A DNA stretch of 64,000 nt from a virus (Duplodnaviria > Heunggongvirae > Uroviricota > Caudoviricetes), in IMG/VR virus record IMGVR_UViG_2706794671_000006; one strand, given 5' to 3'. Positions 1 through 58,653 of this stretch are shown here, in pieces. Both the position numbers and the translations under genes were made by a program. Position 1 is the stretch's first letter. Each line of letters opens with the position of its first letter. The notes beneath the pieces were generated by a model. It was not told where the DNA came from and did not search any database. It was given only the letters and a program-made list of their open reading frames with translations.

Positions 1-56
1 AGGGACAGCTGATAGAAACAGAAGCCACTGGAGCACCTCAAAAACACCATCATACA

Positions 57-518
57 CTAAATCAGTAAGTTGGCAGCATCACCGCCACTTTCCAGTTCTT
101 CCACCCAGGCCTGCGGGACACTGAAATCGAGACGAAAAACCCCGATATCCCAGGTATAGCTCCCACCCTGAACAAGTTGCTCAAATGTTAAACATTGCTT
201 ACCGCTGGCGAAGTTATCGCTATTAATGCCTAACCGCTTGATAACTTCTCTTGATAAACATGTTTCTTGCGGGTTGTCTTTAACAATAATCTCATATTTC
301 CCGCGCCATTGCTTATTGACATAAATATCGATGTCATACTGCCCCGGTAAGGGTTGATTATCATCAAGACGAATATTTGCAACCTGCTGGTCTTTCATTC
401 CACCTATCATAAAATGGGTATCAAAGGTTTCTTCAGCTGCATAAGCTTCAATGCCGAGCAATAACGCTACGATTGCTGATGCAAGTGGGGTCATTCTCAA
501 CATAGGCAGCTCCTGCAA
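57..518 (-). CDS. yehB: fimbrial outer-membrane usher, N-terminal 153 aa only (premature TAG; probable pseudogene or frameshift)
   Basis: Starts immediately after the chaperone gene in a subunit-chaperone-usher operon next to yehE-mrp-metG; ushers are ~800 aa but this frame stops at 57-59. Symbol assigned by gene order only. Confidence 0.5.
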   Translation of the reverse strand: MQELPMLRMTPLASAIVALLLGIEAYAAEETFDTHFMIGGMKDQQVANIRLDDNQPLPGQYDIDIYVNKQWRGKYEIIVKDNPQETCLSREVIKRLGINSDNFASGKQCLTFEQLVQGGSYTWDIGVFRLDFSVPQAWVEELESGGDAANLLI

Positions 519-1193
519 TTAAATTTTGTCACTAATATAGTTGCCATGGTCATCGATAATGGTCAGATGCCAGTTATTTGCATTATTACTTTTGACATTA
601 ACACTCTGACTTTCTAAGGGGGCAATCATAATAGTTTCATAATTGACTTTGACATTATTAGCTTTGACATCCGAAATCGTCACCCAATTAGCTGAGTCAT
701 TTTTTATCACCAAACCATTGCCACTGCGATTTACCAGCAATTTTTTAAATGTCGCTTTATTTACCGGAGCAATACCCGCTGGTCGGTAAAACAACTTAAT
801 TCTGTTTTGCATCGCAAACTTCAGTGCATTCTTACCTTCTTGCTCTGGACTATTTGGTGGAATATCCAGAACATTCAGATAAAAAATGCTTTCTTTATTA
901 GTGGGCAGTTTATTCGGCATAATTTTGATTTTTACTTGCTGCCCGGAATTTGCCCCTATTTTTGCCACTGGTGGCGTTAACATGAAAGGAACCTGAATTT
1001 TTTCTGGTGGTAATGACGTATCGCCATCATCAATCCACGCCTGCAGCAGCGAAGAACGGTTTCCCTGGTTCATCAACTGCACCATCACTTCTTTATTTTC
1101 TGCCGGGTAAATAATGCGCGTCCCGTAGATAACAATTCCGGCATGTGCAGGAAGGACCATAGAAAAAATGAGTAAAGATAATAATCCTTTCAT
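519..1193 (-). CDS. yehC: fimbrial periplasmic chaperone (PapD-like)
   Basis: Signal peptide MKGLLSLLIFSMVLPAHA, chaperone-like sequence; start moved to internal ATG (1193) preceded by AAGAGG RBS. Confidence 0.8.
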   Translation of the reverse strand: MKGLLSLLIFSMVLPAHAGIVIYGTRIIYPAENKEVMVQLMNQGNRSSLLQAWIDDGDTSLPPEKIQVPFMLTPPVAKIGANSGQQVKIKIMPNKLPTNKESIFYLNVLDIPPNSPEQEGKNALKFAMQNRIKLFYRPAGIAPVNKATFKKLLVNRSGNGLVIKNDSANWVTISDVKANNVKVNYETIMIAPLESQSVNVKSNNANNWHLTIIDDHGNYISDKI

Positions 1194-1215
1194 TTTAATG
1201 CCTCTTAAATTAAAA

Positions 1216-1237
1216 GGCCGCCATGGGATAGCGGCCA
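1216..1237 (-). terminator. GC hairpin (GGCCGC...GCGGCC) between fimbrial subunit and chaperone genes, attenuator-like
   Basis: Inverted repeat followed by T-run on the minus strand, directly 3' of the major subunit gene. Confidence 0.35.
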
Positions 1238-1272
1238 TGTTTATTACCTGGAGAAACTTACAATTTTATTTA

Positions 1273-1815
1273 TTAATCCTGCGCCACACGCATAACCAGA
1301 GAAGATAACACATCACCTGATTGCACTGAGTTATCTGTCAGTTTCAGGTATTTTGCTTTAAACGGAATAGCATATTGACCTTCCGCTGTTTTATAACTCT
1401 CAATGTTAAAAGGTGCAGAAACATCCAGGACATCGCTGTTATCACCTAAATAGAGATAGTAACCCACGGTATCGTTGCTACTGGCTATCGCCTTATCGTT
1501 ACCGGTTATTTTATCGTTGGTAATCAACGAGAGTTTTACACCAGCAACTTCTTTCGGGCAGCTAATTTTTAACATGCTGCTGGTTACACCGACTGCATCA
1601 TCATAGGTAGAATATTTAGCTTTACCTTCAAAGACAGTGGTTGGTACAGTCGGCATATTAATACTTACTGAATCACCACCCGCTTCGAATTTACACGGAG
1701 ATTCTGCAATATTCCCCTTAATAGTTAATGTTCCGGTATCAACGTCTGCAGCAAATACTCCAGCGCTCATAAAAAAAGAAGAAAAGACAGCGGCAGCAAT
1801 AATTGAACGTTTCAT
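1273..1815 (-). CDS. yehD: fimbrial major subunit
   Basis: 180 aa, signal peptide, fimbrial subunit-like sequence, first gene of the operon. Confidence 0.8.
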   Translation of the reverse strand: MKRSIIAAAVFSSFFMSAGVFAADVDTGTLTIKGNIAESPCKFEAGGDSVSINMPTVPTTVFEGKAKYSTYDDAVGVTSSMLKISCPKEVAGVKLSLITNDKITGNDKAIASSNDTVGYYLYLGDNSDVLDVSAPFNIESYKTAEGQYAIPFKAKYLKLTDNSVQSGDVLSSLVMRVAQD

Positions 1816-2057
1816 AATATGTTCCTTAATAAAATTTTTTTTTGGTTGTTAAGAGTCTGTATCTCTTGGAAACAAATTTCTCACATCAAAAAAGTTACCG
1901 CAATGTAAACACATTGTTTTATTTATTTGAAACAAATTAACCATTGCAATATAAATACAACAAATATTTAAGAGTATTAACTATTTATCGCATCTATCAA
2001 TTAATGTAGATTTATGTAAATGGTATTGTTGATATCAATAAAAATCAGGTTGCCAAA

Positions 2058-2339
2058 TTAATCGTAGCGATTTAACACGATTCGACGTTTGCTATCGCTA
2101 CCTGCAACAACCACTTCTGTCGTTACACCTTTGACGGGCGAAGAAAACAGATGACGGGTGTCAACATTATACGTTAACTGACCACAATGCGGTTGAGGTT
2201 GACCATTAACCATAGCCATACTGCATGTTGGGGGACTGATCCTGCCATTAATCGCTAATGTGGCAGTCTCTGAAGAGAATGCGGGAGAAGCCAATCCATA
2301 GGCAAGAAAAATAATTCCTGACAGCCAATACTTATTCAT
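2058..2339 (-). CDS. yehE: small secreted protein, YehE-like
   Basis: 93 aa with signal peptide, located between fimbrial operon and mrp as in the yeh locus. Confidence 0.5.
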   Translation of the reverse strand: MNKYWLSGIIFLAYGLASPAFSSETATLAINGRISPPTCSMAMVNGQPQPHCGQLTYNVDTRHLFSSPVKGVTTEVVVAGSDSKRRIVLNRYD

Positions 2340-2583
2340 TGAAGGTTATGCCTGGATAGAATGAGTGCATAACAAACTATAGCTGTACATCCACTACACA
2401 GCCACGAAGGATGATAATGAAGCATTGCCTGTATGATCAATCGACTTTGTAGAGTTTCGGACGAAGGTCCGCAGAATATTCGCAGTATTAAATAAGTGTT
2501 CATTAATGCGGCAAAAACTAATACACCGCATCAATGTAACATCTCTGCGGTGTATGAAGAATAACCAGAATGGTTAATAGGCG

Positions 2584-3693
2584 TTAGACCGCGCGGAAGG
2601 AAATCTCGCCTGGAATGACTTCACCCTGCCAGTAGAGCTGAGCTGCAACGCGGTCAGCCAGCTGGCGGTAGATAGCGGTAAATTCGCTCTCCGGACGGCT
2701 GATAACCGTTGGCGTGCCTTTATCGAGATCCTCACGTAAGGAGATGTGTAACGGCATCTGCCCCAGCAGCTGTGTGTGGTATTTTTCAGCCAGTTTCTCT
2801 GCACCACCGGTACCGAAAATCGGTTCATGGTGACCACAGTTACTGCAAATATGCACACTCATGTTCTCGACAATACCAAGCACCGGAACCTCGACTTTCT
2901 CGAACATCACAATGCCTTTTTTCGCATCGATCAAAGCGATGTCCTGCGGGGTGGTGACCACGACTGCACCAGTTACTGGAATGTTTTGCGCCAGCGTCAA
3001 TTGAATGTCACCGGTGCCTGGCGGCATATCAAGCACCAGATAGTCGAGATCCGGCCACAAGGTTTCCTGCAACATCTGCATTAACGCCTTGCTCGCCATC
3101 GGTCCACGCCACACCATCGCATTGTCGTCAGTGACCAGATAACCAATTGAATTGGTTGCCAGGCCATGAGACATAATCGGTGCCATATGGGTACCGTCCG
3201 GCGAAGTTGGACGCTGATTTTCTGCGCCCAGCATGGTGGGAATTGATGGGCCGTAGATATCGGCGTCCAGAATGCCGACTTTCGCCCCTTCCGCCGCCAG
3301 TGCCAGCGCCAGGTTTACCGCCGTGGAGGATTTACCCACGCCGCCTTTACCGGAACTGACCGCAATGATGTTCTTCACACCATTAATACCCGGCTGATTC
3401 TTCACGCGTTTTAAGGTGGCGATATTGTGCGACAGTTTCCAGTCGATAGCTTTCGCCCCGGTGATACGCAGCAGTTCGGCGCTACATTGCTCTTTTAACT
3501 CTTCAAACGCGCTATGCCAGACGAATGGCATAACCAGTTCCACATGCAACGTGTCGTCCATCCAGGCGACATGGTGCAACGCGTTCAGCGTGGTGAGGTT
3601 ATGCTTCAGGGTTGGGTGCTGAAAATTGGCCAGTGTCCCGGCGACCATTGCGCGCAAGGCTTCTGGTGATTTGGCCTGGGATTGTTCGTTCAT
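2584..3693 (-). CDS. apbC: Fe-S cluster carrier ATPase Mrp/ApbC
   Basis: Walker A SSGKGGVGKSS, CxxC motif (CSNCGHH); start set at MNEQ with AAGGAG RBS. Confidence 0.9.
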   Translation of the reverse strand: MNEQSQAKSPEALRAMVAGTLANFQHPTLKHNLTTLNALHHVAWMDDTLHVELVMPFVWHSAFEELKEQCSAELLRITGAKAIDWKLSHNIATLKRVKNQPGINGVKNIIAVSSGKGGVGKSSTAVNLALALAAEGAKVGILDADIYGPSIPTMLGAENQRPTSPDGTHMAPIMSHGLATNSIGYLVTDDNAMVWRGPMASKALMQMLQETLWPDLDYLVLDMPPGTGDIQLTLAQNIPVTGAVVVTTPQDIALIDAKKGIVMFEKVEVPVLGIVENMSVHICSNCGHHEPIFGTGGAEKLAEKYHTQLLGQMPLHISLREDLDKGTPTVISRPESEFTAIYRQLADRVAAQLYWQGEVIPGEISFRAV

Positions 3694-3824
3694 CCCGACT
3701 CCTTTTTTGTATAGATAAACCATCAGCTGATAGTTTACCTGAAGAATATAGAGAAGTACTTACTTAACATTTTCCCATTTGGTACTATCTAACCCCTTTT
3801 CACTATTAAGAAGTAATGCCTACT

Positions 3825-6220
3825 ATGACTCAAGTCGCGAAGAAAATTCTGGTGACGTGCGCACTGCCGTACGCTAACGGCTCAATCCACCTCGGCCATA
3901 TGCTGGAGCACATCCAGGCTGATGTCTGGGTTCGTTACCAGCGAATGCGCGGCCACGAGGTTAATTTCATCTGTGCCGACGATGCCCACGGTACGCCAAT
4001 CATGCTGAAAGCACAGCAGCTTGGTATCACACCGGAACAGATGATTGGCGAAATGAGTCAGGAACATCAGACTGATTTCGCAGGCTTTAACATCAGCTAT
4101 GACAACTATCACTCGACGCACAGCGAAGAGAACCGTCAGTTGTCCGAGCTTATCTACTCTCGCCTGAAAGAAAACGGTTTTATTAAAAACCGCACCATCT
4201 CACAGCTGTACGATCCGGAAAAATGCATGTTCCTGCCGGACCGTTTTGTAAAAGGCACCTGCCCGAAATGTAAATCCCCGGATCAATACGGCGATAACTG
4301 CGAAGTCTGCGGCGCGACCTACAGCCCGACTGAACTGATCGAGCCGAAATCGGTGGTTTCTGGCGCTACGCCGGTAATGCGTGATTCTGAACNNNNNNNN
4401 NNNNNNNNNNNNNAATGAGTCAGGAGCATCAGACTGATTTCGCAGGCTTTAACATCAGCTATGACAACTATCACTCGACGCACAGCGAAGAGAACCGCCA
4501 GTTGTCAGAACTTATCTACTCTCGCCTGAAAGAGAACGGTTTTATTAAAAACCGCACCATCTCTCAGCTGTACGATCCGGAAAAAGGCATGTTCCTGCCG
4601 GACCGTTTTGTGAAAGGCACCTGCCCGAAATGTAAATCCCCGGATCAATACGGCGATAACTGCGAAGTCTGCGGCGCGACCTACAGCCCGACTGAATTGA
4701 TCGAGCCGAAATCGGTGGTTTCTGGCGCTACGCCGGTAATGCGTGATTCTGAACACTTCTTCTTTGATCTGCCCTCTTTCAGCGAAATGTTGCAGGCATG
4801 GACCCGCAGCGGTGCGTTGCAGGAGCAGGTGGCAAATAAAATGCAGGAGTGGTTTGAATCTGGCCTGCAACAGTGGGATATCTCCCGCGACGCCCCTTAC
4901 TTCGGTTTTGAAATTCCGAACGCGCCGGGCAAATATTTCTACGTCTGGCTGGACGCGCCGATTGGCTACATGGGTTCTTTCAAGAATCTGTGCGACAAGC
5001 GCGGCGACAGCGTAAGCTTCGACGAATACTGGAAGAAAGACTCCACCGCCGAGCTGTACCACTTCATCGGCAAAGATATCGTTTACTTCCACAGTCTGTT
5101 CTGGCCTGCCATGCTGGAAGGCAGCAACTTCCGCAAGCCGACCAACCTGTTTGTTCACGGCTATGTGACGGTGAACGGCGCGAAGATGTCCAAGTCTCGC
5201 GGCACCTTTATTAAAGCCAGCACCTGGCTGAATCATTTTGACGCTGACAGCCTGCGTTACTACTACACTGCGAAACTCTCTTCGCGCATTGATGATATCG
5301 ATCTCAACCTGGAAGATTTCGTTCAGCGCGTGAATGCCGATATCGTGAACAAAGTGGTTAACCTGGCCTCCCGTAATGCAGGCTTTATCAACAAGCGTTT
5401 TGACGGCGTGCTGACAAGCGAACTGGCTGACCCGCAACTGTACAAAACCTTTACTGATGCCGCTGAAGTGATTGGCGAAGCATGGGAAAGCCGCGAATTT
5501 GGTAAAGCTATCCGTGAAATCATGGCATTGGCTGACCTGGCTAATCGCTATGTCGATGAACAGGCTCCGTGGGTGGTGGCGAAGCAGGAAGGTCGCGATG
5601 CAGATCTGCAGGCGATTTGCTCTATGGGCATTAACCTGTTCCGCGTGCTGATGACGTACCTGAAACCGGTACTGCCGAAACTGACTGAACGTGCAGAAGC
5701 ATTCCTGAATACAGAACTGACCTGGGATGGTATCCAGCAACCGCTTCTGGGCCATAAAGTGAATCCGTTCAAGGCACTGTATAACCGTATCGATATGAAA
5801 CTGGTGGAAGCACTGGTGGAAGCATCCAAAGAAGAAGTGAAAGCCACAGCTGCACCGGTAACTGGCCCACTGGCTGACGAACCGATTCAGGAAACCATCA
5901 CCTTTGACGACTTCGCCAAAGTTGACCTGCGTGTGGCGCTGATTGAAAACGCGGAGTTTGTCGAAGGTTCTGACAAACTGCTTCGCCTGACGCTGGATCT
6001 CGGTGGTGAAAAGCGTAATGTCTTCTCAGGCATCCGTTCCGCTTATCCAGATCCACAGGCACTGATTGGTCGTCACACCATTATGGTGGCTAACCTGGCA
6101 CCACGTAAAATGCGCTTCGGTATCTCTGAAGGCATGGTGATGGCTGCCGGTCCTGGCGGGAAAGATATCTTCCTGTTAAGCCCGGATGCTGGTGCTAAAC
6201 CTGGCCACCAGGTTAAGTAA
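3825..6220 (+). CDS. metG: methionyl-tRNA synthetase, frame interrupted by scaffold gap and duplicated flank
   Basis: HLGH motif (SIHLGHM), KMSKS motif, zinc knuckle CPKC...CEVC, C-terminal tRNA-binding domain; ORF track splits it at the N run. Confidence 0.9.
4052..4754. repeat. ~340 bp of metG present on both sides of the gap (approx 4052-4392 and 4414-4754), ~97% identical
   Basis: Both flanks encode [18 protein letters not shown]...PVMRDSE; 9 nucleotide differences, 8 synonymous, 1 Cys/Gly (EKC vs EKG). Confidence 0.85.
4393..4413. other. run of 21 N (assembly/scaffold gap) inside metG
   Basis: Literal n characters in the sequence. Confidence 0.99.
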
Positions 6221-6240
6221 TTAAACAACCTCTCTTCGCA

Positions 6241-6267
6241 ATGCCCGGCAACACGCCGGGCATTTTC
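6241..6267 (+). terminator. rho-independent terminator of metG
   Basis: ATGCCCGGC-AACAC-GCCGGGCAT hairpin followed by TTTTC, 20 nt after the metG stop. Confidence 0.7.
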
Positions 6268-6353
6268 ATATAGACACAATCCCTCCTGATTTACACAATC
6301 CCTAAAACAATTTGTTTTCTACCTTTTGTTGATTGAGATAATAAGCCACATAA

Positions 6354-6369
6354 GAAAACAACTTGTTTT
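6354..6369 (+). promoter_or_regulatory. motif A palindrome GAAAACAAcTTGTTTT upstream of first element gene (second copy at ~6304-6319)
   Basis: Near-perfect inverted repeat AAACAA-N-TTGTTT, 13 nt before the ATG at 6382. Confidence 0.45.
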
Positions 6370-6381
6370 GGAGTAGTTGAA

Positions 6382-6681
6382 ATGTTGAACATTACCCAAG
6401 CCTACCAGGTGGCATTGATCAGTTCATCTCATACATCAGAGGAAGATGCTCGCCGATTCATGATCGCAAGCAATGAGCTGGATTGGGTTTCACAAATTGA
6501 GTACGGTTGCATTGTCCACGCCGGGTTACAGGACGATGACTGGAAAGATGAGTTGCGTCGATATGGTATATCCGAGGGTGCGATTGCGAACATTCAGAAA
6601 GTACTTGATGTAGGCTTTAACTCTGTACATTTTGATTGTGGCGCACCGGTCGTTGAAGGGCTTGAGTGCTGGCAATGGTAA
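6382..6681 (+). CDS. hypothetical protein (first gene of mobile element)
   Basis: 99 aa ORF with GGAG RBS; no recognisable domain. Confidence 0.55.
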   Translation: MLNITQAYQVALISSSHTSEEDARRFMIASNELDWVSQIEYGCIVHAGLQDDDWKDELRRYGISEGAIANIQKVLDVGFNSVHFDCGAPVVEGLECWQW

Positions 6682-6717
6682 TCCGGCAATCGCTTCATAC
6701 TAGATAACGGAGAATTT

Positions 6718-6903
6718 ATGCTTAAAGAAGACTCATATCTACTAAAGGCGCTTGAAATGAGTGGCGTTGAACCTACAGTGAAAAACGCTCACGATATCTA
6801 CCTTCAGTTTTCGACAGAGCTGAAACAGCTCATAAATAAATATGGAGTGAACGACTCCAGCGTCAAAGCCATGATAGATGATGAATTAGACCATCTCATC
6901 TAA
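6718..6903 (+). CDS. hypothetical small protein
   Basis: 61 aa ORF with ACGGAG RBS. Confidence 0.5.
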   Translation: MLKEDSYLLKALEMSGVEPTVKNAHDIYLQFSTELKQLINKYGVNDSSVKAMIDDELDHLI

Positions 6904-6959
6904 TCAAACCGTTGATAATGGCGGTCACAATTTGATTCTTTTCTATAAGAACCCGTTGA

Positions 6960-7800
6960 TCGCCACTACTACCCTCCCATACCAGCAATCACATCATTAA
7001 ATATCAATAGGTTATGGTTGTTTATACCAATAAGAAAACAACTAAATAACAGATCAACGAAACATCAACGCTTTCTCCCGATTTGGTCTAAAAAATTGAC
7101 GTTATCACACATCACTTCTTATACCCGTAATTCTACGCAGCAGATAGCGCCACAGCGTCCAAATTTCACCACAGACGACTCAACACACTACCAACAAAAA
7201 CACACGCTCAAAATCGCTCCCGTTGCGTTACACAACCATATAAACAACTTATTTTCAGGCATAACAAAACAACCAAATAACACATATGCCATTACCCAAA
7301 ACAACCAACCTCTTTATGGCAGGCTACCGAAAAGACCCACCTCTTCTCCCCAGGCTACCGGACAACCAACCTAACTTTCACAGGCAATCCGAAAACATTC
7401 ATACGCGCGATACCCACGACACGCCATTACCCAAACAGCGAAGAAACACCTGAACCGCTGAAACCCTAACGAAGCCTGTAACCGCAAGGTTTCTCTCAAT
7501 CCCAAAAGACACGAAACATAACAATCACGGGAAACGCCATTACCCAATACACGAATAACTACAAAAGCCTTCACACACTCCAGACAAACAACTCAAACAC
7601 AATAACGAAAGCAATCGCCCACCTGCCATTACTCCATACACGGAGAAGAACAATCACCAAAACGACGAGAACACCCCCATAGAAGAACCACCGCAAAACT
7701 AACGAAACCACATACACCGACAGAGAAAACAACACACCCAATTCACCAACAGAAATAGTCGCCGTATAGAACATTCTGGAAGGAGTGAGCATTAACGCCT
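6960..7800. other. AC-rich (G/T-poor on plus strand) non-coding tract with iterated CGCCATTACCCAA and CAGGCTACCG motifs
   Basis: Extreme strand composition skew read directly; ORFs called here have no RBS and low-complexity translations. Confidence 0.6.
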
Positions 7801-7871
7801 ATAGAGAGGTTGAGACAGATAAAACACAACATGTATAGCGAAGAAGCCAGGTATGTATAAGTGGAGAGGGA

Positions 7872-7896
7872 AGGAGGTGTGTCGCCTCCTTTTTCG
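7872..7896 (+). terminator. terminator-like hairpin after AC-rich tract
   Basis: AGGAGG-TGTGTCG-CCTCCT followed by TTTTCG. Confidence 0.45.
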
Positions 7897-8444
7897 TATT
7901 TATTCAACATCTTACCATCACCCCCCGTAACACCCCTACGGTCAGCCTTCGGTCCATACAGAGAAAAGGTTGCATACGCTACAGAAACGGCTGGGGATTT
8001 TCAGGGAAACGGTCGAGTTGCCTGTGTGGATTTCGGGAAAAGGCTCGATGCCGGTTCTGGAACGGCGGCGTACCGGTATAGCGAGAGAGTTGCAGCTACC
8101 CACCTGTAATGTGCGGGAAGAAGAGAGGCGCTCACGTGCAGGCTGACTTGCTTACCGCTGGATTCCCTCTGAATGCCAGATACAGCGTAATTGTGCCAGA
8201 CAGCCAGCGGGTCACAATCGATTTCAGTAGGTTTTCGGGGAGAGGATTATTCTACCCACCAGCCCCGCGGCGCGCGTAGAGCAGAATATCGTAAATACTG
8301 GCTCTCGTGTCGTTCCCGGATATTCACTGCCCAGCCTGGCTTTCCCGACATAAAATCCTTTTTCGCCTTTATCTTATTGCGATAATAACACCAACAAGTA
8401 AACAGCATATTTAGACGTTATAGAAACGAAGTGAGGATGAAGAG

Positions 8445-8663
8445 ATGATTAAGATGCCTGTGACGGTTGAGGTGTGGGGCGTGGATTCCCTGGCTGAGTG
8501 TCTGGATGCAGTGGGGCCGGAGTTGTACCGCAAGTTGTGGTCGTTCGTCCCGGCAGAAGGGGAATCGCCCAAAGGGAAGGATATCTGGCACCTGCTGAGT
8601 GAAGATGAAAAGCGGGAGCTGGTGGGCGCGGTACACAGCGAGTTCCCGGACGACCAAGATTAA
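8445..8663 (+). CDS. hypothetical acidic small protein
   Basis: 72 aa, GAGGA RBS 8 nt upstream, terminator follows. Confidence 0.6.
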   Translation: MIKMPVTVEVWGVDSLAECLDAVGPELYRKLWSFVPAEGESPKGKDIWHLLSEDEKRELVGAVHSEFPDDQD

Positions 8664-8669
8664 GAGTGA

Positions 8670-8693
8670 GGCCACCAGCACGGTGGCTTTTGT
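8670..8693 (+). terminator. rho-independent terminator
   Basis: GCCACC-AGCAC-GGTGGC + TTTTGT. Confidence 0.6.
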
Positions 8694-8726
8694 CGCTATT
8701 AACCTCGGGGCAGCGCAGCACCGTAA

Positions 8727-8790
8727 CGATATACTTTGTGGCCGTTTTCTTACTGGTATTGTTTACGTAATTCAGAAAACAACATGTTTA
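8727..8790 (+). promoter_or_regulatory. ~60 bp promoter-like segment, copy 1 (TTGTGGCCG...TATTGTTTACG + degenerate motif A)
   Basis: Near-identical to 9228-9285; contains -35/-10-like hexamers. Confidence 0.4.
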
Positions 8791-8801
8791 AGGATTGCTT
8801 T

Positions 8802-9131
8802 ATGTTTGCAAATATCGACATCAACCAAATTAAGAAATTGACTCAAAAAGAGTTTGACCAGTTTTATGAGCTGGAAGGTTGGTCTTCCACTCTGATTAAT
8901 TCAAGATGGGTGCTGGAGCTGATGACTCGTGATGACGCACCTGCTTTGATGATTTGCGACATGGGTGAAGATGCTGACTTTATGGATATGAGCGAATTTT
9001 GTGTGGACACATACAACCGCAGCCAGAAGTACTACTTCACATGCGATAGCGAAAATGACGTGATTTCTAAGGTCTATCTTCACCTCGTCCAGCATTGGGA
9101 CGTTCAGGACTTCCTTGCGATATTCGCGTAA
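8802..9131 (+). CDS. hypothetical protein
   Basis: Start moved to MFANIDIN with AAGGA RBS; 109 aa. Confidence 0.55.
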   Translation: MFANIDINQIKKLTQKEFDQFYELEGWSSTLINSRWVLELMTRDDAPALMICDMGEDADFMDMSEFCVDTYNRSQKYYFTCDSENDVISKVYLHLVQHWDVQDFLAIFA

Positions 9132-9227
9132 GCCCAACCAAAGCCAGCATTGCTGGCTTAACTTCATCTGTAGCCGCAGGGAAGAACCTGCATATCGCTC
9201 ATGCGCCTGATCAATATGCTTTGTAGC

Positions 9228-9285
9228 CGTTTTCTTACTGGTATTATTTACGCCATTGAGAAAACAAGTTGTTTACGGAGTTGTG
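9228..9285 (+). promoter_or_regulatory. ~60 bp promoter-like segment, copy 2, ending in motif A GAAAACAAGTTGTTTAC
   Basis: Direct repeat of 8727-8790; motif A abuts the ACGGAG RBS of the next gene. Confidence 0.4.
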
Positions 9286-9597
9286 ATGAAAAAATCATTG
9301 GTTCTTGGTCTGGACAAAGACCAGAAGAGAAAAGAGAAGCCTGCACTGGTTGCTCAATTAACTTTGCTGGACATCGTTGCCAATGGAACCTCTATTCGTC
9401 TGTTCCGTGAAACAGCGGTGTCTTTCGATAAAAACACCTTTACTCGTTATGTAATGAATGTTCGTCGCCAGCGTGGAAAAGGCTGGATGGCATTTCAAAG
9501 AATGTGGCCGGAACATCAGCTCGAACTGGCTTTGATGGAAGTTAACCGCGTGGCCCAGCAAGAGATTCAGAGAGCATCAGTGATGGCAATAGCCTGA
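9286..9597 (+). CDS. hypothetical basic protein
   Basis: Start at MKKSLVLG with ACGGAG RBS; terminator follows. Confidence 0.6.
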   Translation: MKKSLVLGLDKDQKRKEKPALVAQLTLLDIVANGTSIRLFRETAVSFDKNTFTRYVMNVRRQRGKGWMAFQRMWPEHQLELALMEVNRVAQQEIQRASVMAIA

Positions 9598-9633
9598 TAA
9601 TGTGCAAGTGGTAATTAGTCGACAGTACGACAG

Positions 9634-9659
9634 CCCCGCCATCCTTACGGGGTTTTTTT
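9634..9659 (+). terminator. rho-independent terminator
   Basis: CCCCG-CCATCCTTA-CGGGG followed by TTTTTTT. Confidence 0.7.
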
Positions 9660-9723
9660 GTATTGTAAGTACATACCTATGTCTATAAAATAGAAAAATA
9701 ACCAAGACACTATGGAGAGTGAT

Positions 9724-10119
9724 ATGAGCGTTAAACGAGAAAACCTGACAGTTGATGTCTACTATGCTTCAGAAAGCGCCGAAGGTAAGAATGTAGCTAA
9801 AATCACCGTCGTTACGTACAACACCGAAACTGGAACTGAAGTTCAGGCAAGTACTATTGTGCGTAAAGGAGATACATCAGGCGGGGAATATGAGGCGCAA
9901 TATCAGTCCATTTTTGATGCAACGGACCCGTTGTTGTTGAAAATTGAAAGTTACTTCCGTAAGGTGAATAAAGAGGTGTTTGAAACCATGATGAATATGG
10001 TTAACACCGTATTCGCTTCCAGTCTGAACACTAACACTACCTGGATTGGTCAGTATGGTCTGCGCATTACCTCCGGCATTCCTGCTGACACCTTAATCCC
10101 TGAAAGCGTATTCGCTTAA
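9724..10119 (+). CDS. hypothetical protein
   Basis: Start set at MSVKREN (GGAGAG RBS); 131 aa. Confidence 0.55.
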   Translation: MSVKRENLTVDVYYASESAEGKNVAKITVVTYNTETGTEVQASTIVRKGDTSGGEYEAQYQSIFDATDPLLLKIESYFRKVNKEVFETMMNMVNTVFASSLNTNTTWIGQYGLRITSGIPADTLIPESVFA

Positions 10120-10128
10120 TCCTCTTTG

Positions 10129-10156
10129 AATGGCGCGTAAACCGCGCCATTTTCTT
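10129..10156 (+). terminator. rho-independent terminator
   Basis: ATGGCGCG-TAAAC-CGCGCCAT followed by TTTCTT. Confidence 0.6.
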
Positions 10157-10165
10157 ATGCCCGAT

Positions 10166-10181
10166 AACAATTTGTTTTCTG
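10166..10181 (+). promoter_or_regulatory. motif A (TAACAATTTGTTTTCT)
   Basis: Palindrome family member ~58 nt upstream of the 10238 start. Confidence 0.4.
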
Positions 10182-10237
10182 CCTTATCTGATTTGTGAAA
10201 ATGCTTTCACTGAAAGCAACTTGATAAGGAAACCATC

Positions 10238-10612
10238 ATGGGACTTGATATCTACATTGAGACGCAACCAAAAAACGATCTGAATAACGATGCATCCAGA
10301 AAGAAGGTTGCTTACTTCCGTAAGTTCAATGCTCTCTTTGGGTGGATGGAACGCAACGTAGGTGAAGTCAAAAATTGTGAGCTTTTAGAATTAACGATGA
10401 ATGACATTTGTGCTCTGAAAGCTCATTTGATGCACATGAACGAAAGTAACTGCGAAGAGTACTTACCTACCTGTGAAGGTTTTTTCTTCGGCAGTCAGGA
10501 GTACGATGAAGGGTACTGGCATGACGTGGGGGAGTTGAAAAAACTTGTGGAAGAGCTGATTAAGAACCACGACTTTCACAATAACAGACTGACCTTCTGC
10601 GCCTGGTGGTAA
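10238..10612 (+). CDS. hypothetical Cys-containing protein
   Basis: 124 aa ORF. Confidence 0.55.
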   Translation: MGLDIYIETQPKNDLNNDASRKKVAYFRKFNALFGWMERNVGEVKNCELLELTMNDICALKAHLMHMNESNCEEYLPTCEGFFFGSQEYDEGYWHDVGELKKLVEELIKNHDFHNNRLTFCAWW

Positions 10613-10614
10613 AT

Positions 10615-10758
10615 ATGGGCGATTTCAAGAAACGCCTGAAGGAAAGAGCCGAGATAGTCAGAAAGCAAAACGCCTCTTCTGTCATCAGATACGCAAGGCA
10701 GTTTAGTCGCAACAACAAATCAGTTGAGGAAAAGATCCTTAGCGTAATCGGTCGATAA
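10615..10758 (+). CDS. hypothetical 47-aa basic peptide (below ORF-track cutoff)
   Basis: ATG 3 nt after upstream stop, in-frame to TAA; hairpin follows. No clear RBS. Confidence 0.3.
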   Translation: MGDFKKRLKERAEIVRKQNASSVIRYARQFSRNNKSVEEKILSVIGR

Positions 10759-10927
10759 TTATTAAGGCCACCACTGCTGGTGGCCTTAAATGACCATCCT
10801 GTTTCCCGCAGGCTAAAAACACCAACCTCTTACCTCCAGGCAACCGACAAACCCACCTGTTCCCGTCCGGCTACCGCAACTTTCCACTTTGACGCCTTAT
10901 TCGTACAACGATAATTAACGCCAACAA

Positions 10928-10943
10928 GAAAACAATTTGTTAT
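10928..10943 (+). promoter_or_regulatory. motif A (GAAAACAATTTGTTAT)
   Basis: 20 nt upstream of the 10963 start, just before AAGGAA RBS. Confidence 0.45.
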
Positions 10944-10962
10944 TTACGATAAGGAATTAATC

Positions 10963-11445
10963 ATGAATTTTATCGCTACTGTAAACGCACCCGCACATGG
11001 CAATATCGCTGTAACGTTCTCTGACATTGAAAAACGAGTACTTGGTGCATGGCGCGACAATGAGACGGTAGAACTGTCAGCACAAGAAAAATGCATTATT
11101 GCACGCGACATCATTGGCAATCGTCGTTACTCGCGGGTATTTGAGAAAGCGTATGTGGTAAATTCTGGATTCGGAACGTTCGTCTTTCCGGTGCGCTCCG
11201 GGCGATTCTGCCAGTCCAAGCTGATTGAGTTCGCTACGCAGATTTCTGTCTGGATTAAAACTCAATCGTCGTTCAAATTTTCCGACGATGAAGCAGTATC
11301 GCAGGGGATGCGGATCGCCAACAATGCAATTAAATGCAAAAACATTACGTATACCGCTGGCGTTGATACATGGAAACTGTTTTGCGCTAACTTTATGCTG
11401 AATGTATACGCAAGCAACCGCATCCACATCCTTGATGGCGTGTAA
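10963..11445 (+). CDS. hypothetical protein
   Basis: 160 aa ORF; last gene of the rightward early block. Confidence 0.55.
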   Translation: MNFIATVNAPAHGNIAVTFSDIEKRVLGAWRDNETVELSAQEKCIIARDIIGNRRYSRVFEKAYVVNSGFGTFVFPVRSGRFCQSKLIEFATQISVWIKTQSSFKFSDDEAVSQGMRIANNAIKCKNITYTAGVDTWKLFCANFMLNVYASNRIHILDGV

Positions 11446-12060
11446 CTGAGAAGAGGGCCAGTAACGGCCCTTTCTCTATAGCCACCAGATGCCGCAGGGA
11501 AATTTTCAGAAACGGCGAGGAACGTATTCATGAACCGACGGGGAACGGCCAGGATTTTTTCGGGAAACGGCTGCATTCGCCTTTATGTAGAAAAAACATC
11601 GGGAAGCTGGTGGAATCCAACCAGCGGTTGTCGGACAGGTGAGCGGGGAAAATTATGATGACTTTCGTCGCCTGAGACATCCAGATTTCTTTCGTAGCGT
11701 AATCGCATACGTGATTAAGTGGTGTGATTATGTGAAAAATCACGCGCACATAATACGCGAGCGGATACGGAACAAAACAAAATGCCGATCCGCGCCGACA
11801 AATAAACGCGGATCACATAGCAAGACTAAAAGCCAATGATTAACCATACTCTATAGCGCAATATAACGTGTTTTAAGCGCGTTAATGTGTTAAGTAATGG
11901 GTATGTACTGACAAGGATATAAAAGCGCGTCTATGGCGTTATTTTGGCGCTTATTTTTATGTTGTTGGAGTGAGTTAAAGACAATAAAAACGCGCCATCA
12001 TTGGCGCGTTATGGTAGGTGTATTGGAAACGAAAAAAGCGCCCATAGTGGGCGCTCGATT

Positions 12061-12291
12061 TTATTTGTGTAAACTGATTTTAAATCCCATTTCGACAAAC
12101 GCTTTTAACATTAAAAATATATCAGCGTCGTTCACGTCTGCTTTTTTTCGCTCCTGGTCGCTCAATAAGTCAATTTTGCGCGTCGTTTCATCTATAAGCT
12201 CGACTGCGCGCCCAGCGTAACCAGCGATCCCAGCGATGCGATTAACATAATATTCATTATGGACGTTAACGCCAGCGATAAGAACAAACAT
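12061..12291 (-). CDS. hypothetical protein
   Basis: 76 aa ORF in AT-rich minus-strand cluster; hairpin GCGCCCATAGTGGGCGC directly 3'. Confidence 0.45.
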   Translation of the reverse strand: MFVLIAGVNVHNEYYVNRIAGIAGYAGRAVELIDETTRKIDLLSDQERKKADVNDADIFLMLKAFVEMGFKISLHK

Positions 12292-12312
12292 GATTAAGCT
12301 CCTTAAAAAAAA

Positions 12313-12516
12313 TTAAATAGAATTTTGAAGTTTTCCGATTAATGCGCTTAAACGTAAGTATTCACGTTTGCGCTTGCAATCTCGCTTGCTGTTAAGCAAA
12401 TCAGAAAACGTAAAATTTAATTGGTCGCGTTGCGCGATCAAATCATCGATTAATTCTAGTTTATAAGCGCGATACTTTGCGCGATATTCCGCGCGGATCT
12501 TGTCATAGCTGACCAT
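12313..12516 (-). CDS. hypothetical basic small protein
   Basis: Start set at MVSYDK with AAGGAG RBS; 67 aa. Confidence 0.45.
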   Translation of the reverse strand: MVSYDKIRAEYRAKYRAYKLELIDDLIAQRDQLNFTFSDLLNSKRDCKRKREYLRLSALIGKLQNSI

Positions 12517-12564
12517 CTTTAAAGCTCCTTTAAAGCGCCCACTATGGGCGCTTAATTCCATTAA

Positions 12565-13215
12565 TTACGCTTTGAAAGCGTCAGCTAAATAATTGTAGAA
12601 ATCATTTTTAATGAAGCGATATTGCTGAGTACCAGCTTTTGCGATCCCAGCTCCTTTGACTTTTTCAACAAGTCCAAGACGTTCGCAAAGATTGATCAAC
12701 TGGTTGGCTTGAGTATAGCCAGCGTCCAATTTAATCTCACACGCTTTTTTAGCTTCATTCATTAAATCGAAAACAGCGCCATTGGTGAACGTGTCGATCT
12801 CGTCGTTAATCATATCGATTAAAGCAAATACACGAGATCCAGACATATCAGCGATGGAATAAACGCATTTACCAGATTTAATTGATTTAACCAGATAAAC
12901 CAGTTTTTCCAGTGAATAACTATTAGTCATTGCATCACGGAAAAATACTTCTGGCGCTTGTTTGCTTGCTTTAATCGCATAGTAGAAAACAGAGCATAAT
13001 TTTTCGTCTTCTACTGCGTTTACGACGTTGTTGATGAAGTAAGCAAGTTTAGTGGTCGCAGCTTGCATATTTGCTTTGTCTGCTTTAGTGTGCGTACCAT
13101 TTTTATAATGTTCGTTATATGTTTGAGTTGCCAGATCTGCTTTTTCGCGCAGTTCGTCGGATACAATAGATGCAGCTTCAATGATGGACTTTTTAGAAAT
13201 GATAATGTTAGCCAT
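12565..13215 (-). CDS. hypothetical protein
   Basis: 216 aa ORF, AT-rich codon usage distinct from neighbours. Confidence 0.55.
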   Translation of the reverse strand: MANIIISKKSIIEAASIVSDELREKADLATQTYNEHYKNGTHTKADKANMQAATTKLAYFINNVVNAVEDEKLCSVFYYAIKASKQAPEVFFRDAMTNSYSLEKLVYLVKSIKSGKCVYSIADMSGSRVFALIDMINDEIDTFTNGAVFDLMNEAKKACEIKLDAGYTQANQLINLCERLGLVEKVKGAGIAKAGTQQYRFIKNDFYNYLADAFKA

Positions 13216-13512
13216 GATTTTATTCCTTAGTATAAATATTAAAATTTAACTCAAGAAAGAAAGTGTTTTGCACTCGTTCCTGATGCGTTCAATTATCGAT
13301 ACGCGAAAAAAGATTGCAAGTGTTTTTTTAAGTTTTTTTGCAGGGATGAAAGTCCTAGAAATAAATGTTAGATCGTCGAGGGTGTTCCCTAAATAAATAA
13401 TCGATTCCGGCTTTAGACCTTATATATTTATACGGGGTAGAATTGAAAGAGTATAAAATGAATGGCATGTAAAATAATAACCGGACTTAGCCGGTTATTA
13501 CCCTTATAGAAA

Positions 13513-14034
13513 TTAAAACGGAAGGATTCGTTCAACCCAATCGAAGAAAATAAGTATTTTTCTACCGTCTTCCAACTTAAGTGTGACTAGACAGGCGTCA
13601 ACGCCATCTGACGTTCCCTCAATTTCGCGACCGTCTGCCATGTAGACCCTTATAGATTTGCCGTTTTGGTAAGCCTGACGACATATCTTAAAAAAGTCAC
13701 GACGTGATGGCTGATTAACCATCTGTTCATTGTTTAGCGTTAGTCGACCTGTGAATGAAGTGTCAACCTCTTCTATGCCCGACTCAATTGTGCTAATGCG
13801 CTCAAGAGGGAGCCTTATACGATTTGTGTTGCTAAGCGGATCTGGTGTGAGGTTCAGCTTATTTCTTGCGCTCAATAGCCCGTAGACATACATGCAAAAC
13901 ACTTGGCCGTCTTCGAGAGTGACTCTTACAGGAAATTTTGCACTCCGCCAGAAGAGCAAGGTACGTTCAGCATGTTCGTAGTCTCGCGGCCATACTTCAG
14001 CCGGTATGCCGTAGGTGATGTCCAATGTTCTCAT
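13513..14034 (-). CDS. hypothetical cytoplasmic protein, translationally coupled to upstream secreted-protein gene
   Basis: 173 aa; ATGA start/stop overlap with 14031-14624. Confidence 0.55.
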   Translation of the reverse strand: MRTLDITYGIPAEVWPRDYEHAERTLLFWRSAKFPVRVTLEDGQVFCMYVYGLLSARNKLNLTPDPLSNTNRIRLPLERISTIESGIEEVDTSFTGRLTLNNEQMVNQPSRRDFFKICRQAYQNGKSIRVYMADGREIEGTSDGVDACLVTLKLEDGRKILIFFDWVERILPF

Positions 14035-14624
14035 TCTGATACTCTTAGAGGTGTTTTCAGCAACCCAAATTTAAATTCTTTGTTACCAACGACAAAGAAG
14101 GGAACCTCAACATAGATTTTTTTATCGACGGATTTAGAGTTCGCTGTTTTCTGTATGTCACGAACGATACGTTTTGAGGTATTTTCATCGATAAACAATA
14201 CCTTTCCACTTGTATTCCCTTCAGCCTTGGCGTAAGTAACGATAGGCTCTTCATTGCCAACCCTAATGTTTACTTGGCAACCTGTTGTAGCCATTTCATC
14301 ACAGTAAAGTGTGCCGTCTTGAACTTCCAAAACAATTCCAGATGGCTTCATGGCTTCGTCAGAGCTTACATTAACGTTTTCTGGTACAGCGGTTCCGTTA
14401 ATTTGCAACCGTAATCTTTCTTTTCCTGCATTAAGTATTGTTTCTTCTGCGTTATCTGAGAATCTGAACCAGACTGGTTGAATCAGACCTCGTGATTCGT
14501 ATTTTAGTACGTCTTCAGAAGTATACATGCTGTACGTTTTTTGCATGTCGGAGACGATATCTGACAACGCATTGGCGGAAAATGACGAGAGGTATATACA
14601 AGCAAGAAGTAACGAACGTTTCAT
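14031..14624 (-). CDS. predicted secreted/periplasmic protein (Sec signal peptide, ANA cleavage motif)
   Basis: N-terminus MKRSLLLACIYLSSFSANA-LSD; 197 aa. Confidence 0.6.
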   Translation of the reverse strand: MKRSLLLACIYLSSFSANALSDIVSDMQKTYSMYTSEDVLKYESRGLIQPVWFRFSDNAEETILNAGKERLRLQINGTAVPENVNVSSDEAMKPSGIVLEVQDGTLYCDEMATTGCQVNIRVGNEEPIVTYAKAEGNTSGKVLFIDENTSKRIVRDIQKTANSKSVDKKIYVEVPFFVVGNKEFKFGLLKTPLRVSE

Positions 14625-14805
14625 TTTTATACAGCGATTATTGCAAAGTAGAATTATAAATATCCAATAGTCTCAAACGATAAGTTTTCAACTGTAAATA
14701 GCAGACGTGTTTTCTCTAAAAGCTGTGCGGCAAAGGCGTTGTTGCCGCACTCTGTCTATTAGCTCTTCAAGTCTGGCAATTCTGAAATTGACTAAGAATC
14801 CAATA

Positions 14806-15084
14806 TTACGGCAGTTTGCTTAGAATTTGCTCTAAATCTTCCTTTGTCATATTAGAGTTCTCATAGATGCGCATGATTTTCTCACGAGCCTTAGCAGAGA
14901 CTCCAACGGCAGATGAAACTTTGTCAAATTCAGCCATCGTCATCGTCTCCAGAATGGTATTGATAACTTCAGCCTTAGACATTTTGATGTTTTTTTCTTT
15001 TAGTTTCATTTGAAACTTTCCAAGTTTGTCATTGGCCTTATCGGACAATGCCACCTGACAATAAGTTGTTTTCTTTTCGCTCAT
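14806..15084 (-). CDS. hypothetical small protein downstream of helicase
   Basis: 92 aa ORF starting 3 nt after the helicase stop. Confidence 0.5.
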   Translation of the reverse strand: MSEKKTTYCQVALSDKANDKLGKFQMKLKEKNIKMSKAEVINTILETMTMAEFDKVSSAVGVSAKAREKIMRIYENSNMTKEDLEQILSKLP

Positions 15085-15086
15085 AA

Positions 15087-16646
15087 CTAATCTCGTTTCA
15101 GAACTCCAAAATCGAATGCGCCATCAATAGGCAATACACCTTCTGCAAAGCCAGGTGTGGTGTCGATGATGTGTTTTCGCTCATAAGAGTGAGACAACAG
15201 GTATTTGTTGCTAATGTCAATGAAATCAGTGATAAAACACACGTTTGCCTGATTCTTCTTGGCTCGTAAGCCACGACCGACACGCTGCCTCATTTCAACT
15301 TCTGCTTTCCCACCACCAGCAAGAATGACCGCACCAACGCTTGGCACATCAACACCGACATCCAGAATAGTCGAGCCTATTAAAACATCTATTTCTCCAG
15401 ACGCTAAACTGTTCAGCTTTGCTTGCCTTGTCGCCTGGTTAGATTCCCCATAGATGAAGTCAACTCTAAGGCCGGACTCTTTCATCATTTCCATCAGGAT
15501 TTGCCCGTGGCGTTTAAGGCGAACCAGAGTCATACAATTGAGAGAATGTTGCTTATAGAGCAATGCTTCGCGCACAATGGCCTCGTTACGTCCCAAATTA
15601 TACACGATCCCCAACTGATAAGCCTTTTGGTAGGCGGTGCTCATACCAACTCTAAAATTGAGGTGTTTGTTGGCAAGTTCGGCCTTGATTCTGGCCTCGT
15701 CTGGCTTGTAGGCAACTTTATGATAAAGGAAGTACGGCTTTGCCAGAATGCCTCGATCAATCAGATACTTTTCTGTGACTTTAATTTCAATTCGCCCGGC
15801 CACCGCCATCAGGCGCATGTTGGCTTCCGTCGAATCCTTCATGAACGGCGTGGCTGTAAGCGCCAGACGATAGTCTGCGTTCACACATAATCTGGCGATG
15901 TCATAGAAATTTGAGCCTGAAGACTCATGCGCCTCTTCCAGAATAAGAAGAGAGACACTTGAAAGGAAGCGTTTCACCAACTCCCGACGTTTGAGGTGGT
16001 AGCTTTTCTTATCTGGTGTTGCATCGCGTGGTGGTTCTTCGAGGAAACTTGCAAGAGTTTGAACTGTAGCGACGTTGATATGTCGTGATACCTGGAACTC
16101 ACCCGAGCCAATGACTCCAACCTTTTGGTCTTTTAACCACGGTTCGCCATTTTTGGCGCGGTAGTCGATGGATCTCTGGAAGTTTTCGGCCATTTGAAAC
16201 ATCAGAACAGAGCGGGTTGTTAAAAATAATGTCATTCGACCGATACGTGCAGCTGCTTTGCAGGCAACGTTAGATTTCCCGCCACCAGTAGCGATCTGCG
16301 CAATCATCATTCCCTCTCGAACCAGTGTTTCCACAGTCTGATCCTGATACGCATAATCAGGATTGTATGGGAATGGGTTAACCGCCGGATTTGGTTTACC
16401 AAGCGCCGGGGCTTTGTCTTTGCGGATATGAACACATTTGATGCCCGCCTTGTTCAAATTAGCCGCCACGGGCTTGGCAAAGCCAGCAGGGAACGAGTTT
16501 TTGCTCCAGTTGAACATTGTGCTTGTGCCCTTCCAGTCGCCAGCCTCGACTTCGTAGCTCAACATTTGCTGCACCAGTTGCTTTACCTTGTCATCTGCGC
16601 CAGAAATAAGCGCATTTACTGCGTTAGATACAATCCGAACAGTCAT
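15087..16646 (-). CDS. SF2 DExH-box helicase
   Basis: Motif I ATGGGKSNVA, motif II LEEAHE, motif III TATP, motif VI QRVGRGLRA. Confidence 0.8.
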   Translation of the reverse strand: MTVRIVSNAVNALISGADDKVKQLVQQMLSYEVEAGDWKGTSTMFNWSKNSFPAGFAKPVAANLNKAGIKCVHIRKDKAPALGKPNPAVNPFPYNPDYAYQDQTVETLVREGMMIAQIATGGGKSNVACKAAARIGRMTLFLTTRSVLMFQMAENFQRSIDYRAKNGEPWLKDQKVGVIGSGEFQVSRHINVATVQTLASFLEEPPRDATPDKKSYHLKRRELVKRFLSSVSLLILEEAHESSGSNFYDIARLCVNADYRLALTATPFMKDSTEANMRLMAVAGRIEIKVTEKYLIDRGILAKPYFLYHKVAYKPDEARIKAELANKHLNFRVGMSTAYQKAYQLGIVYNLGRNEAIVREALLYKQHSLNCMTLVRLKRHGQILMEMMKESGLRVDFIYGESNQATRQAKLNSLASGEIDVLIGSTILDVGVDVPSVGAVILAGGGKAEVEMRQRVGRGLRAKKNQANVCFITDFIDISNKYLLSHSYERKHIIDTTPGFAEGVLPIDGAFDFGVLKRD

Positions 16647-16692
16647 AAACCTCTTTCCTTAGTGCCTTTTGTATGTTATTTGGCTATTATAA

Positions 16693-16710
16693 TAAGTAAG
16701 TGATTACTTA
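16693..16710 (+). promoter_or_regulatory. motif B palindrome TAAGTAA-GTGA-TTACTTA in divergent promoter region
   Basis: Perfect 7-bp arms; sits between the divergently transcribed helicase and ParB-like genes. Confidence 0.45.
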
Positions 16711-17409
16711 GTGGATTGTAGCAATAAAATGGACGTAAAAATCACGATTTTGCAGGTTGATGTTGCCAACCTTCGCCCGAATACCTGGAACACCAATTCG
16801 GTTGGTGCGCAGAATTTCGAAAAACTGAAAGGTTCTATCGAAAAATTGGGCTTTTTTAAGCCAATTTTGGCTCGTGAACTTGAAGATGGATTTTTTGAAA
16901 TCCTCGGCGGCGAACATCGCTGGCGTGCCGCTATTGAGCAAGGAATTTCAACGGTTCCAGTGCTTTCTGTGGGCAAAATTAGCGATGTCGTAGCTAAACA
17001 GATGTCACTGGTGGACAACGAGCGATACGGTGAAGACGACCAAATCGCATTGCAACGCTTCATTGAAGAAATTCAGTCAGAACTTGACTATCAACTGTCT
17101 GAAATCGCCCCGTATGACGACGAAATCTCGATGGTTTTAGCAAAAGAGGCGGCAATCGACCTTGAAGCACTGGAGGCGTTGTCTCGTGGTAGTGATGAGC
17201 CTGTCGATACCGACAAACGAGAGAAAACCGAACGTGTCGGTGCGGAACATCAGACCATGCGCTTCAAAGTAACCTTCGATGCGTCAGATCGCGTTGCAGA
17301 AACCATAAAAAACATCATCAAAGACCAGGCAATTAATACTGGCAATGAAATGGAAAACGCTGGTGAGGCTCTAGTGTGGCTGGTCGACTACTACAAGGAG
17401 CGTATGTAA
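16711..17409 (+). CDS. ParB/Srx-like nuclease-domain protein
   Basis: ParB box-like LGGEHRWRAAIEQGISTVPV; acidic C-terminal half. Start (GTG 16711 or ATG 16729) uncertain. Confidence 0.7.
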   Translation: MDCSNKMDVKITILQVDVANLRPNTWNTNSVGAQNFEKLKGSIEKLGFFKPILARELEDGFFEILGGEHRWRAAIEQGISTVPVLSVGKISDVVAKQMSLVDNERYGEDDQIALQRFIEEIQSELDYQLSEIAPYDDEISMVLAKEAAIDLEALEALSRGSDEPVDTDKREKTERVGAEHQTMRFKVTFDASDRVAETIKNIIKDQAINTGNEMENAGEALVWLVDYYKERM

Positions 17410-21986: not shown

Positions 21987-22004
21987 GTAAGTAATTATCT
22001 AAGG
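21982..22004 (+). promoter_or_regulatory. motif B (GATAGGTAAGTAATTATCTAAGG) between terminase and portal genes
   Basis: Overlaps the terminase stop codon; 9 nt before the portal ATG. Confidence 0.4.
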
Positions 22005-22012
22005 TTATTCAA

Positions 22013-23587: not shown

Positions 23588-23608
23588 TAAGTAACAAAAG
23601 GAATTTTT

Positions 23609-24496: not shown

Positions 24497-24521
24497 CATC
24501 TAAATCAAAGGGAATTGATAG

Positions 24522-25442: not shown

Positions 25443-25450
25443 CTAAAACA

Positions 25451-25470
25451 ATAGGTATGTAATTACCTAT
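25451..25470 (+). promoter_or_regulatory. motif B palindrome ATAGGTA-TGTAAT-TACCTAT
   Basis: Perfect 7-bp arms directly after capsid stop. Confidence 0.45.
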
Positions 25471-25476
25471 GCTTAA

Positions 25477-25502
25477 GGGTGGGCTATACGCCCACCCTTT
25501 TT
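25477..25502 (+). terminator. rho-independent terminator after capsid gene
   Basis: GGGTGGGC-TATAC-GCCCACCC followed by TTTTT. Confidence 0.75.
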
Positions 25503-58557: not shown

Positions 58558-58562
58558 ATTTA

Positions 58563-58649: not shown

Positions 58650-58653
58650 AATT

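Follow-up and report, generated by a model that had tools for sequence, protein, structure and literature searches.

Why does the same internal stretch of the essential gene metG stand on both sides of a run of N, in two slightly different versions, in a Shigella sonnei draft scaffold that passes from chromosomal genes to the genes of a phage-plasmid? The window, by which we mean the whole stretch of DNA analysed here (64,000 bp), is the first 64 kb of the draft scaffold CWTI01000001.1, which is 112,136 bp long and belongs to assembly GCA_001255855.1. The 601-amino-acid open reading frame at 4415–6220 is on record in CWTI01000001.1 alone.

Results

The gap and its flanking copies

The sole N run within the 64-kb window lies at 4393–4413, where 21 N were counted. 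The segments on its left (4052–4392) and on its right (4414–4754) are 341-bp copies that align without gaps at an offset of 362 bp and mismatch at nine positions, namely 4064/4426, 4136/4498, 4145/4507, 4148/4510, 4172/4534, 4202/4564, 4224/4586, 4250/4612 and 4335/4697. When the coding effect was read with the metG ATG at 3825, eight of the nine mismatches were synonymous, seven at third codon positions and one a CTG/TTG difference at the first position of a Leu codon. The sole amino-acid change is at codon 134 (window 4224), which is TGC (Cys) in the left copy and GGC (Gly) in the right copy. A preliminary description of this locus had reported a 21-N run between two divergent metG copies with eight synonymous differences and one Cys/Gly change, and its figures were exact on recount. 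Differences of this kind are well beyond chance or sequencing error. The repeated segment corresponds to nt 228–568 of the 2034 nt of metG (codons 77–190) and is internal to the gene. A true duplication would cause a frameshift in the essential metG, the offset of 362 bp not being divisible by 3, although this is a weak point because the length of the N run is an estimate.

Chromosomal and phage-plasmid parts of the scaffold

Positions 1–4392 match the E. coli chromosomal region yehB-yehC-yehD-yehE-apbC-metG, and 1–3931 are 100% identical to S. sonnei chromosomes. Gene calls, Pfam families and the annotation of the matches place a block of chromosomal genes on the minus strand at 57–3693, comprising truncated yehB' (57–503), yehC (519–1193), yehD (1273–1815), yehE (2058–2339) and the chromosomal apbC (2584–3693). 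A terminal fragment of IS1 occupies 1–87 and also matches at 100% a second IS1 copy in each of the S. sonnei chromosomal loci, in which IS1 genes sit at this position in yehB. A scaffold start at the boundary of an IS1 repeat is a typical short-read contig break.

On the other side of metG, 6221–64000 is an SSU5-type phage-plasmid backbone with 98.5–100% identity to NZ_CP045933.1, LR213459.1 and NZ_CP053753.1, which are complete S. sonnei phage-plasmids in PLSDB. The match to these three records is 100% and without indels over 39001–64000. The best matches of 4414–9000 are metG-bearing plasmids of about 110 kb, such as p09EL50 of E. coli O104:H4, which come ahead of chromosomes, and 4414–29000 is 98.7% identical to an S. 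sonnei plasmid of about 108 kb (PLSDB). In a separate comparison with pAUSMDU00010534_01, 4414–18706 gave 98.5% identity with 34 gap openings, and the tail and replication half gave 100%. The stretch of backbone adjoining metG is accordingly a variable region. The genes of the backbone include hypothetical genes, a DEAD helicase, ParB-like genes and the terminase, portal, capsid and tail genes, followed by a DnaB-like helicase, ligase, primase and a tRNA cluster. The maintenance and replication genes were named by annotation transfer from near-identical records: ParB-domain proteins, DnaB-like helicase, primase and ligase are annotated in complete records whose regions are collinear with the window. 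The cluster at 58483–59306 holds four tRNA genes, Asn-GTT, Tyr-GTA, Thr-TGT and Ser-TGA.

The region containing terminase, portal and major capsid genes (20700–25500) matches Salmonella phage SSU5 (JQ965645.1) along its whole length at 82.2% identity and shows 95.6–100% identity to the Escherichia phage-plasmid phages CMS-2020a (two records), Cyrano and PhiR41_1. On sequence grounds the element is predicted to be a phage-plasmid of the SSU5 supergroup. Its relatives are extrachromosomal. When the backbone at 6300–14000 was sought in complete E. coli genomes, it was present in 247 of 5,426 and stood at 266 places on plasmids and at none on a chromosome. About 205 PLSDB plasmids carry the phage-plasmid type of metG. 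With relatives that are always plasmids and a length that fits one circle, the element may likewise exist as a free circular replicon of about 100–110 kb in this isolate.

The complete S. sonnei phage-plasmids bear a full apbC and a complete metG, divergently arranged as on the chromosome. In a comparison of the chromosomal and phage-plasmid versions of this region (window 2584–6220 against 6516–9807 of the phage-plasmid locus L002), identity was about 83% in apbC and about 61% in the intergenic region; in metG it was 95–98.5% over the 5' 1.2 kb and 89–92% over the 3' 0.85 kb. The homology stops exactly at the two stop codons. The pair looks as if it had been captured from another enterobacterium and then partly homogenised with the gene of the Escherichia host. 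The encoded phage-plasmid methionyl-tRNA synthetase (MetRS; L002 7774–9807) differs from the chromosomal enzyme at six residues only, G134C, S273G, A410T, V442I, A554T and D565E. The first of these is presumably 12 residues ahead of the first zinc-knuckle cysteine of E. coli MetRS.

Allele phase of the two contigs

The chromosomal (C) and S. sonnei phage-plasmid (P) alleles of metG differ at 115 of 2034 positions, and with these diagnostic sites an allele and a phase could be given to every segment on both sides of the gap. On the left, metG begins on the plus strand with nt 1–107 (3825–3931), which has no mismatch to the chromosome and two to the phage-plasmid; the sites at 3776–3807 upstream of metG are likewise chromosomal. 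The next tract, nt 108–568 (3932–4392), has 18 mismatches to the chromosome and none to pAUSMDU00010534_01, and it includes Cys134. Of the 20 diagnostic sites on the left contig, the first two are therefore C and the remaining 18 all P, including the nine in the repeat. On the right, the repeat copy (4414–4754, nt 228–568, plus strand) is the chromosomal allele with Gly134, and 4414–4860 has no mismatch to the chromosome and nine to the phage-plasmid. From 4861 to the stop codon at 6220 (nt 675–2034, plus strand) there are 96 mismatches to the chromosome and one to the phage-plasmid. The right contig is thus C at the first nine sites (9/9), which are those of the repeat, and then P at each later site through the stop. 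Both contigs are chimeric, each with one phase switch.

Both switches fall in blocks of exact identity between the metG copies. The left contig changes from chromosomal to plasmid sequence in a 68-bp block (3864–3931, plus strand), and the right contig makes the same change in a 163-bp block (4698–4860, plus strand), which is 4336–4498 in chromosome-equivalent coordinates. The left contig stops 57 bp into this 163-bp block. In the repeat, the plasmid allele thus stands on the left and the chromosomal allele on the right, the inverse of what the flanks suggest. The opposite assignment was rejected on the SNP tables. That two genuine metG alleles meet at the gap, as had been proposed from the synonymous bias, was borne out, since the left copy has the S. 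sonnei phage-plasmid base at nine of nine sites and the right copy the chromosomal base at nine of nine.

The apbC protein of the window was used to reach eight complete S. sonnei chromosomal loci and two draft contigs. One of the eight (L005) was left out of the scoring, and six of the seven scored chromosomes are without either chimeric configuration. The metG of chromosome CP104423.1 is a pure C allele. Phage-plasmid CP104415.1 is 98.7% identical over the right-junction query, like other S. sonnei phage-plasmids, and the adjacent accession series suggests that these two records are one genome. The right-junction query of 687 bp had a best PLSDB plasmid match of 99.0%, and the three complete S. 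sonnei phage-plasmids listed each matched it at 98.7%, which corresponds to nine mismatches. The left-junction query had a best match of 98.4% among complete E. coli records. Neither chimeric configuration was found in finished sequence, that is, among PLSDB plasmids for the right junction and among complete E. coli records for the left.

Mixed alleles of other kinds were observed elsewhere. The metG of CP102115.1, an S. sonnei chromosome recorded as complete, shows more than 15 alternations between C and P over the 115 diagnostic sites (3836–5869 of the locus L009). Repeated gene conversion could have produced this pattern, as could polishing with short reads drawn from both copies. The mosaic in CP102115.1 is likewise without the chimeric configurations of the scaffold. 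The metG of the O104:H4 plasmid p09EL50 (5774–7807 of the locus L001) has a largely contiguous chromosome-like tract at about nt 174–720 and is otherwise of plasmid type, which suggests natural recombination between host and phage-plasmid in metG. Several PLSDB "plasmids" of 4.8–4.9 Mb (hits H105, H115 and H116) matched through a chromosomal metG and are evidently mislabelled chromosomes.

Scaffold length and contig ends

The bases through the end of the gap amount to 4,413, and subtraction from 112,136 leaves 107,723 bp; the closest complete phage-plasmids are 108,101–108,107 bp long. An indel difference of 258 bp from these relatives lies within 4414–29000, and the remaining shortfall is about 126 bp. 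Judged from the lengths, the plasmid part is probably about one full circle and ends near the metG-equivalent position 3926, inside the 68-bp block. The agreement between 107,723 bp and the length of the phage-plasmids indicates that the scaffold consists of one small chromosomal contig and approximately one plasmid circle.

S. sonnei draft assemblies seem to break often in or beside metG. The draft contig L012 (1–373) ends at about nt 242 of metG. The apbC protein of the window is present in 4,149 blocks of the collection, and in most of them the longest contig that carries it is just 2–10 kb. The contig ends do not point to a particular assembler. If the left contig ended with the last k-mer to contain the SNP at 4335, k would have to be 58, an even number, and the right contig begins 12 nt before its first SNP, which is no k-mer boundary; k-mer arithmetic explains neither the ends nor the 21 N.

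Discussion

Our data indicate, with a probability of roughly 80%, that two real metG genes, one on the chromosome and one on the phage-plasmid, were tangled in a short-read assembly, and that both their arrangement in series and the joining of the two replicons are artefacts. The two copies beside the gap are very probably two alleles of one segment, which belong in parallel on separate replicons. This reading is supported by the phasing at 115 sites, the purely chromosomal sequence of 1–3931 and the exclusive occurrence of the backbone on plasmids (266 against 0). It is further supported by the length of one circle, the absence of the chimeras from finished sequence and the fact that other drafts break in metG. 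A genuine tandem duplication in metG was rejected, as the copies are a plasmid and a chromosomal allele and their flanks come from different replicons.

The assembly step responsible for the arrangement is one that we infer as follows. The isolate would hold a chromosomal metG and a second one on an extrachromosomal SSU5-type phage-plasmid of about 108 kb, similar to pWPMR2, which would earlier have captured apbC and metG. The two metG copies, being 95–98.5% identical over the first 1.2 kb, would form parallel paths in the assembly that are joined by identical blocks. The chromosomal contig would cross to the plasmid allele in the 68-bp block, and the plasmid contig would have acquired the chromosomal allele ahead of the 163-bp block. 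The contigs may then have been set in series over a nominal gap of 21 N during scaffolding or gap filling. With plasmid sequence in its last 461 bp, the "chromosomal" contig would be linked to the plasmid contig by read pairs. Because the two ends span the same 341 bp yet differ at nine sites, they could not be merged and would be left in series around the nominal gap. On this reading the earlier suggestion that the assembler broke at the metG repeat was right.

The reciprocal switches are, as a caveat to this reading, also what a real exchange by integration and excision would leave. If the phage-plasmid had entered the chromosome by homologous recombination in the 68-bp block and left it by way of the 163-bp block, or if an equivalent gene conversion had occurred, the contigs would be correctly phased and only the scaffold join would be wrong. 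The chromosome would then contain a plasmid tract at metG nt 108–511 (about 400 bp), and the plasmid would contain a chromosomal tract. The observed pattern is exactly reciprocal, and about 2 kb of metG homology at 89–98.5% identity is enough for RecA-dependent recombination. The contiguous chromosome-like tract in the O104:H4 phage-plasmid and the plasmid-type patches in CP102115.1 also point in this direction. However, a phase error between co-resident copies yields the identical reciprocal pattern at no cost, and both switch points are blocks of exact identity, where short-read graphs are ambiguous. The configurations are moreover absent from the complete S. sonnei phage-plasmids, from complete E. 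coli records and from six of the seven scored S. sonnei chromosomes. We therefore consider a real exchange improbable, although it is the alternative that survives best. If it were true, the G134C allele of the plasmid would now sit in the essential chromosomal MetRS and the chromosomal allele on the plasmid. This would be direct evidence that a phage-plasmid rewrites the metG of its host, and of recombination between a mobile and an essential aminoacyl-tRNA synthetase gene.

A true cointegrate, in which one homologous crossover had inserted the phage-plasmid into the chromosomal metG, whether throughout the culture or in a fraction of it, would make the scaffold link real and only the overlapping 341 bp artefactual. 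The scaffolder did link the two contigs, and the homology in metG is extensive. The link arises more simply, however, from plasmid-derived read pairs, since the left contig ends in 461 bp of plasmid sequence. From one crossover a single hybrid metG would be expected, in contrast to the two overlapping alleles and two phase switches seen here. The scaffold length leaves no space for a second junction or for chromosomal DNA at the far end, and all 266 places at which complete E. coli genomes carry the backbone are on plasmids. Integration is quite unlikely on this evidence.

The preliminary description had further proposed that the contigs came from different genomes or strains, and a mixture of two strains or a contaminated culture, with contigs of different chromosomal metG alleles, would account for the synonymous bias as a sign of two genuine alleles. 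The non-chromosomal allele, including Cys134, is however base for base that of the S. sonnei phage-plasmid, and the right contig continues directly into this element, so that no second chromosome is needed. The two alleles instead come from the chromosome and an SSU5-type phage-plasmid within a single isolate, and a mixture of strains is very unlikely. Least likely of all is an integrated element that supplies a replacement 3' end of its target gene, as phages that integrate at tRNA genes or gene ends do: a mobile element does lie directly downstream of metG in the scaffold, but the repeat (codons 77–190) is away from the 3' end of metG, the element bears the whole of metG and apbC, and its relatives are plasmids. 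In the 10 kb after metG, the Pfam families on record are only DUF5983, Flag1_repress and DEAD-helicase families; no integrase family is among the recorded hits there, and most genes in that stretch are without a Pfam hit. The idea that a second metG is tied to the adjacent element thus holds, as it is the phage-plasmid allele, and the idea that it is a replacement 3' end falls with the complete gene and the internal position of the repeat.

The biology that underlies this locus, metG borne by a phage-plasmid in S. sonnei, is already published, and the window is one further example of it. pWPMR2 is an SSU5-group phage-plasmid of S. sonnei that carries metG, and a link between phage-plasmid MetRS and the survival of antimicrobials has been reported for epidemic S. 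sonnei (Tam et al. 2024, medRxiv, as cited in PMC12452169). According to a preprint (bioRxiv 10.1101/2025.09.12.675607), SSU5-group phage-plasmids like pWPMR2 occur in 18% of 3,428 S. sonnei genomes from the UK. The element in the window appears to be pWPMR2-like from its host, size, SSU5 type and carriage of metG, a basis that does not include sequence comparison with pWPMR2 itself. The main worth of our observation is practical. Where a common phage-plasmid of S. sonnei brings in another metG, short-read assemblies can break, cross phase and be mis-scaffolded at this gene. Possible false calls include a truncated or frameshifted essential metG, an apparent prophage at metG and spurious metG SNPs in mapping-based studies. 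Caution is called for with annotation and SNP calls at metG in strains of Shigella and E. coli that carry SSU5-type phage-plasmids.

Comparison with known systems

Phage-plasmids of the pWPMR2 type are the closest known system. Like the element in the window, they come from S. sonnei, measure about 108 kb, have structural genes resembling those of SSU5 and bring a second metG that diverges slightly from the chromosomal one. The fusion to a chromosomal contig sets the present scaffold apart from them, and as this fusion is most probably a product of assembly it marks no biological difference. Integrative elements that duplicate the 3' end of a gene resemble the scaffold in that a mobile element lies beside a housekeeping gene of which a part is repeated. 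Unlike in those elements, the repeat here is internal, a complete gene is carried, the element is a plasmid in finished genomes, and an adjacent integrase and att sites are absent (for the integrase, in the Pfam record of the 10 kb after metG). Campbell-type cointegrates, for example Hfr strains formed through IS copies, are similar in that plasmid and chromosome share homology able to mediate integration, but the present backbone has no chromosomal occurrence among 266, and the scaffold length fits a free circle. Duplication artefacts at scaffold gaps show the same features as this locus, with the same sequence on both sides of an N run, contig ends in near-identical repeats and replicons joined. 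They differ from it in that the two copies of metG are two real alleles, and each contig has also switched phase.
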